Shown in pieces: positions 1 through 1,278 of a stretch of DNA of 1,278 bases. Position 1 is the stretch's first letter. Every line of letters begins with the position of its first letter. The translations under genes and the position numbers were made by a program. The stretch lies in sequence record MT912506.1; one strand, 5' to 3'. The notes under the pieces are model-generated. The model saw nothing but the letters and a program-made list of their open reading frames with translations. It was not told where the DNA came from and ran no database searches. This DNA is from a phage.

Positions 1-1278
1 ATGAGCAACGTGCAGACCAGCGCCGAGAGGATCCCCCACGACCTGAGCCACCTGGTGTTCGAGGCCGGCAAGATCGGCAGGCTGAAGACCATCAGCTGGA
101 CCCCCGTGGTGGCCGGCGACAGCTACGAGACCGAGATGGTGGGCGCCATCAGGCTGAGCCCCCTGAGGAGGGGCCTGGCCGTGGACAGCAGGGTGGACGT
201 GTTCACCTTCTACATCCCCCACAGGCACGTGTACGGCCAGCAGTGGATCGACTTCATGAAGACCGGCGTGAACGCCACCCCCCTGGCCCCCGTGACCTGC
301 GCCAGCGGCTGGGACAGCGCCGCCTACCTGGGCACCATCCCCAGCACCAACCTGAAGGTGCCCAAGTTCCTGCACCAGAGCTACCTGAACATCTACAACA
401 ACTACTTCAAGCCCCCCTGGAGCAACGACCTGACCTACGCCAACCCCAGCAACATGCCCGCCGAGGACTACAAGTGGGGCGTGAGGGTGGCCAACCTGAA
501 GAGCATCTGGACCGCCCCCCTGCCCCCCGACAGCCTGACCAAGCAGGACATGACCACCGGCGCCACCACCATCGACATCATGGGCCTGCAGGCCGCCTAC
601 GCCAAGCTGCACACCGAGCAGGAGAGGGACTACTTCATGACCAGGTACAGGGACATCATGAAGGACTTCGGCGGCCACACCAGCTACGACGGCGACAACA
701 GGCCCCTGCTGCTGATGAGGAGCGAGTTCTGGGCCAGCGGCTACGACGTGGACGGCACCGACCAGACCAGCCTGGGCCAGTTCAGCGGCAGGGTGCAGCA
801 GACCTTCAACCACAAGGTGCCCAGGTTCTACGTGCCCGAGCACGGCGTGATCATGACCCTGAGCGTGACCAGGTTCCCCCCCACCCACGAGATGGAGATG
901 CACTACCTGGTGGGCAAGGAGAGCCTGACCTACACCGACATCGCCTGCGACCCCGCCCTGATGGCCAACCTGCCCCCCAGGGAGATCGAGGTGAAGGACC
1001 TGTTCCACAGCGCCGGCACCGGCAAGTTCAAGATCGCCGAGGGCCAGTGGTACAGGACCCAGCCCGACAGGGTGGCCTTCCCCTACAACGCCCTGGACGG
1101 CTTCCCCTTCTACAGCAAGCTGCCCAGCAACGACATCCTGGAGAGGGTGCTGGTGCACACCGACAACTACGACGAGATCTTCCAGAGCATGCAGCTGGTG
1201 CACTGGAACATGCAGACCAAGTTCAACACCACCGTGTACAGGCACATGCCCACCACCAGGGACGGCATCATGACCAGC
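1..1278 (+). CDS. F: Major capsid protein F, phiX174-like microvirus (Bullavirinae); full-length protein, stop codon not present in the window; back-translated or codon-optimised coding sequence
   Basis: Seen in sequence: frame +1 is open from ATG at nt 1 to nt 1278 (426 codons, no in-frame stop). Translation begins MSNVQTSAERIPHDLSHLVFEAGKIGRLKTISWTPVVAGDSYE and ends TVYRHMPTTRDGIMTS. Established knowledge (recalled, not computed): many long stretches match phiX174/G4 protein F, e.g. PHDLSHL, LRLSPLRRGLA, HRHVYG, GVNATPL, YLNIYNNYFK, IWTAPLPP, IDIMGLQAAYA (nt 571-603), DNRPLL, WASGYDVDGTDQTSLGQFSGRVQQT (nt 730-804), VPEHG, LTYTDIA, NLPPREI, KFKIAEGQWYR (nt 1024-1056) and the C-terminal IMTS; the length (426 aa) matches the ~427 aa phiX174 F. 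Codon usage is synthetic (one codon per amino acid), so no native start-site context can be assessed. Confidence 0.9.
   Translation, partial: MSNVQTSAERIPHDLSHLVFEAGKIGRLKTISWTPVVAGDSYETEMVGAIRLSPLRRGLAVDSRVDVFTFYIPHRHVYGQQWIDFMKTGVNATPLAPVTCASGWDSAAYLGTIPSTNLKVPKFLHQSYLNIYNNYFKPPWSNDLTYANPSNMPAEDYKWGVRVANLKSIWTAPLPPDSLTKQDMTTGATTIDIMGLQAAYAKLHTEQERDYFMTRYRDIMKDFGGHTSYDGDNRPLLLMRSEFWASGYDVDGTDQTSLGQFSGRVQQTFNHKVPRFYVPEHGVIMTLSVTRFPPTHEMEMHYLVGKESLTYTDIACDPALMANLPPREIEVKDLFHSAGTGKFKIAEGQWYRTQPDRVAFPYNALDGFPFYSKLPSNDILERVLVHTDNYDEIFQSMQLVHWNMQTKFNTTVYRHMPTTRDGIMTS

Follow-up and report, generated by a model that had tools for sequence, protein, structure and literature searches.

The analysed window is a stretch of 1278 nucleotides occupied over its entire length (1..1278, plus strand, frame 1) by a single open frame of 426 codons that starts with ATG. 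The frame encodes the complete major capsid protein F (gpF, 426 aa) of Escherichia phage EMCL318, as judged from an identity of 426/426 residues and from membership of the Phage_F family. A stop codon is absent from the window, whereas the natural EMCL318 F gene ends in TAA. The translation was compared with 50 697 phage records using tblastn; 591 records were matched, among which EMCL318 (MG563770.1, nt 2559–3836, F/gpF) was the only one with 100% identity over residues 1–426. The translation of the window and that of the natural F gene agree character for character. An exact-sequence look-up in a collection of 15 billion proteins returned AUG88362.1, described as ‘gpF [Escherichia phage EMCL318]’, at 426/426; the first-pass annotation had itself named a 100% match to a known F protein as the outcome that would make the window an ordinary gene that had simply been back-translated. 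Nothing met in the analysis contradicts the identification, and the encoded protein is an ordinary, known gene product, neither a new lineage nor a designed capsid.

The record of the source phage describes a circular genome of 5489 nt with the gene order A, A*, B, K, C, D, E, J, F, G, H, in which F spans 2559–3839 between J and G. This is the context shared by the Bullavirinae (order A-B-K-C-D-E-J-F-G-H on a circular ssDNA of ∼5.4–6.1 kb); the window itself comes without flanks. EMCL318 is classified in its record under Microviridae, Bullavirinae, Gequatrovirus, with wastewater from Kamloops, Canada as the source and E. coli 15-318 as the host. The phage was published in 2018 after isolation from Canadian wastewater, with mass spectrometric identification of its F protein and a reconstruction by cryo-EM (PMC6316680).

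The DNA of the window is coded in a manner unlike that of natural genes. It uses 20 distinct codons for the 20 amino acids, one codon for each (A=GCC, R=AGG, S=AGC, L=CTG, P=CCC, T=ACC, V=GTG, G=GGC and the others likewise single), so that all codons end in G or C (GC3 of 1.00, or 100%). The natural EMCL318 F gene, in comparison, draws on 49 codons, with six different ones for Leu and four for each of Ala, Pro and Val, and has a GC3 of 0.42; the overall G+C content is 64% in the window and 46% in the natural gene. All 22 arginines of the window are encoded by AGG, whereas CGT and CGC are the sole arginine codons of the natural gene. Since AGG is seldom used in E. coli, the codon set is poorly suited to the host of the phage. 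The set points to a human-type codon table: we take the G/C-ending set to be that preferred in human genes, and the choices R=AGG, S=AGC and L=CTG are presumably those of the default human table of EMBOSS backtranseq. The reasoning of the first-pass annotation did not mention the use of one codon per amino acid, and back-translation was hinted at only in its statement of what would refute it. Apart from the F frame, the only open reading frames of at least 30 aa in the window are three on the minus strand (468–581, 930–1031 and 1167–1271) of 33–37 aa; these were dismissed as by-products of an artificial sequence.

At the nucleotide level, the window and the natural EMCL318 F gene are 71.3% identical, with 367 of 1278 nucleotides different (285 at third, 55 at first and 27 at second codon positions). 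The changes affect 290 of the 426 codons and are synonymous throughout; those at first and second positions arise because Ser TCN becomes AGC, Arg CGN becomes AGG and Leu TTR becomes CTG. The closest phage DNA found by blastn is the EMCL318 F gene itself, at 71.6% identity. No exact 40-mer of the window was found in IMG/VR, and no Rfam family was matched in the window at the gathering thresholds. Natural microvirus genomic DNA would be recognized by mixed codons, a stop codon and a resemblance to some natural genome at the nucleotide level, and these are lacking in the window. Since a single codon per amino acid and a GC3 of 1.00 are unlike natural genes, the window DNA is best explained as a mechanical back-translation. 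We conclude, with a probability of about 97%, that the window is an in silico back-translation of the natural EMCL318 gpF into fixed, G/C-ending, human-preferred codons and that it does not come from any genome. Only the nucleotide sequence is artificial; the protein is natural and already known. The DNA-level properties of the window (its 64% G+C, the short minus-strand frames and any motifs) are side effects of the back-translation and have no biological meaning.

The same coding would also be seen in a physical construct, that is, a codon-optimized synthetic gene made for the mammalian or in vitro expression of an EMCL318/G4-type F protein, as might be wanted for virus-like particles. All codons end in G or C, as is presumably preferred in human genes, and the encoded sequence is exactly that of a natural capsid protein, both of which would suit such a gene. 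However, a strict choice of one codon per residue is rare in practical optimization because it gives rise to repeats and C-runs such as CCCCCCCC at Pro-Pro. The window also has no stop codon, Kozak sequence or ribosome-binding site, tag or cloning sites, and a megablast search of the window DNA against a plasmid collection gave no match. We consider a physical gene of this kind very unlikely, and it does not change the biological verdict.

The family assignment of the protein is unambiguous. Pfam PF02305 (Phage_F) is matched with 525 bits (E = 2.3e-157; cutoff 25), and sequence matches in the PDB include 1GFF (G4; E = 2.6e-272), 2BPA/1AL0 (phiX174) and 1M06 (alpha3) (E of ∼1e-191 to 1e-194), together with the phiX174 chain 1CD3 and newer cryo-EM entries. 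These matches, from 1e-191 to 1e-272, bear out the earlier view that the window encodes a capsid protein F of the phiX174/G4 family that is nearer to G4. Its N-terminus, MSNVQTSAER, had been likened to that of G4; it is indeed of the G4/alpha3 type and differs from that of phiX174 (MSNIQTGAER). With 426 aa the protein has the length of a Bullavirinae F (∼426–431 aa, without the long threefold ‘mushroom’ insertion of gokushovirus VP1), next to 427 aa in G4 and phiX174 and 431 aa in alpha3, and it aligns end to end with these three proteins with between one and five gap columns. In contrast, SpV4 VP1 (497 aa) and a VP1 of 553 aa match the window protein only in part.

Within the genus Gequatrovirus, the G4 F protein is 88.5% (1GFF chain 1) or 87.6% (RefSeq YP_009497844.1) identical to the window protein; some 50 substitutions and a deletion of one residue near position 338 set the two apart. 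The first-pass annotation was therefore mistaken in holding that the later segments match neither G4 nor phiX174 closely. The F proteins of phiX174 (2BPA/1AL0; NP_040711.1; genus Sinsheimervirus) and alpha3 (1M06; NP_039597.1; genus Alphatrevirus) belong to the same Pfam family and are alignable over the full length, with identities of 65.7 and 64.3%, respectively. The closest relatives after EMCL318 itself are the gpF proteins of ID18 (NC_007856, YP_512796.1) and WA14 (DQ079909, AAZ49387.1), which have the same length and are identical at 422 of 426 residues (99.1%).

Divergence from phiX174 and alpha3 is concentrated at residues ∼91–120, 141–180, 281–310 and 351–400. The earlier proposal that it is centred on residues 94–166, 285–310 and 353–378 holds against these two proteins and fails against G4. 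Compared with phiX174, the three segments are 48% identical versus 73% elsewhere (Fisher p = 1.2e-6); compared with alpha3 the same pattern is found in weaker form (p = 0.004). Compared with G4, the segments are 90% identical versus 86% elsewhere and are not more diverged (p = 0.33); the differences from G4 F cluster instead at residues 171–190, 321–350 and 371–390. High conservation had also been claimed for residues 181–280, and this was substantiated: they are 77% identical to phiX174, as opposed to 62% elsewhere (p = 0.008), and the difference is seen with alpha3 as well (p = 0.02). Judged from these alignments, the regional pattern may fairly be described as the divergence between genera of Bullavirinae F proteins and is not a peculiarity of the window sequence.

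The conserved stretch had been equated with the structural core of the protein. About two thirds of phiX174 F are said to lie in insertions, chiefly an E–F loop of ∼163 residues and an H–I loop of ∼111 residues reported in the structure papers. If these sizes hold, the insertion loops would cover much of residues 181–280, and the equation of conserved with core is for this reason probably only partly right. On where the insertion loops of phiX174 F begin and end, the literature yielded only general statements, namely that the eight-stranded barrel is conserved and that the insertion loops are variable. A single-sequence AlphaFold2 model of the window protein had a mean pLDDT of 29.5 and a pTM of 0.20 and was unusable for assigning substitutions to strands or loops.

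Given an identity of 88.5% to the 1GFF chain within the same genus, the solved G4 fold should be directly applicable to the window protein. The protein would thus be expected to adopt an eight-stranded jelly-roll fold with large insertion loops and to form a T = 1 shell of 60 subunits, as is also indicated by the cryo-EM work on EMCL318 (PMC6316680). By analogy with the phiX174-type phages, 60 copies of F, each with a jelly-roll barrel of eight strands and long insertion loops, would build up the T = 1 icosahedral shell. Assembly would proceed via pentamers with the help of the internal scaffolding protein B and the external scaffolding protein D. Pentamers of G (the spikes) and H would be located at the fivefold vertices, and the shell would enclose the ssDNA accompanied by protein J. 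The assembly roles of the phiX174-type proteins are summarized in the annotations of the ID18 RefSeq record. This is the established mechanism of the family, and its application to the window protein is suggested by the homology to G4 and phiX174. The protein can be regarded as a well understood T = 1 microvirus capsid protein with a close homologue of solved structure (G4, PDB 1GFF).

The first-pass annotation had left open whether the window represents a capsid that had been engineered or generated by computation. The unnatural appearance of the DNA and the moderate distance of the protein from the reference sequences (87.6% identity to G4 and 65.7% to phiX174) might suggest a variant of the phiX174/G4 family that was engineered or designed by a language model. 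At the protein level this is refuted by the 426/426 identity to the capsid protein of a wastewater phage (MG563770) that was published in 2018. Furthermore, the sequence is only four residues away from those of ID18 and WA14 (DQ-series accessions, isolated in 2001–2002), and a generated sequence would not copy one natural isolate exactly. We regard a designed capsid as extremely improbable.

An equally negligible probability is assigned to a previously unrecognized natural lineage of Bullavirinae capsid proteins. In its favour, the F proteins of ID18, WA14 and EMCL318 are diverged by ∼10% from all other G4-like F proteins: those of ID204, FL68, ID2, ID11, WA2/3 and NC13 are 88.5–89.7% identical to the window protein by tblastn, with ID204 F (89.7%) the next best match after the three. 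The window protein accordingly falls into the ID18/WA14/EMCL318 subcluster, for which we took an identity of at least 99% to these three and of at most 90% to other G4-like F proteins as the mark of membership; the values found are 100% for EMCL318, 99.1% for ID18 and WA14, and then 89.7%. However, this subcluster has already been described, WA14, ID18 and EMCL318 having been grouped into a cluster of their own within the G4 clade (PMC6316680), and the RefSeq record of ID18 is classified as Gequatrovirus G4. The earlier suggestion of a distinct natural lineage is thus correct in that the protein is natural and belongs to a recognizable sublineage and incorrect in that it is not new, being exactly the published EMCL318 gpF. 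Both the designed-capsid and the new-lineage readings were rejected, on the basis of the exact match and of the deposited records. For the back-translated EMCL318 gpF, the main value of the analysis lies in a negative result: the window should not be listed among new capsid lineages, designed proteins or features of a genome.

The four substitutions that separate the window protein from ID18/WA14 F (window residue first) are A101S (codon at 301..303, plus strand), K373E (1117..1119, plus strand), H386R (1156..1158, plus strand) and V400A (1198..1200, plus strand), as located by alignment. The EMCL318 paper counts three F changes relative to WA14 (PMC6316680); four residues differ in the present comparison. 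Ala101, Lys373, His386 and Val400 all lie within segments whose conservation between the genera of Bullavirinae is among the lowest. It is conceivable, if rather unlikely, that these four residues help EMCL318 to form plaques on the multidrug-resistant E. coli strain 15-318. EMCL318 F would in that case be a host-range variant worth testing; this concerns a known phage and nothing new in the window, and the question of host range in relation to the F changes has already been raised by the authors of the EMCL318 work (PMC6316680).

A minor observation concerns the G4 reference. The RefSeq F sequence of G4 (2600–3883) and chain 1 of 1GFF differ at five residues (G36V, G37V, P69S, R282G and E379D), and at residues 36, 37 and 282 the window protein agrees with 1GFF. 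These differences, with the window protein siding with the crystal structure at three of the five positions, suggest that the old G4 reference sequence contains errors or reflects differences between strains.
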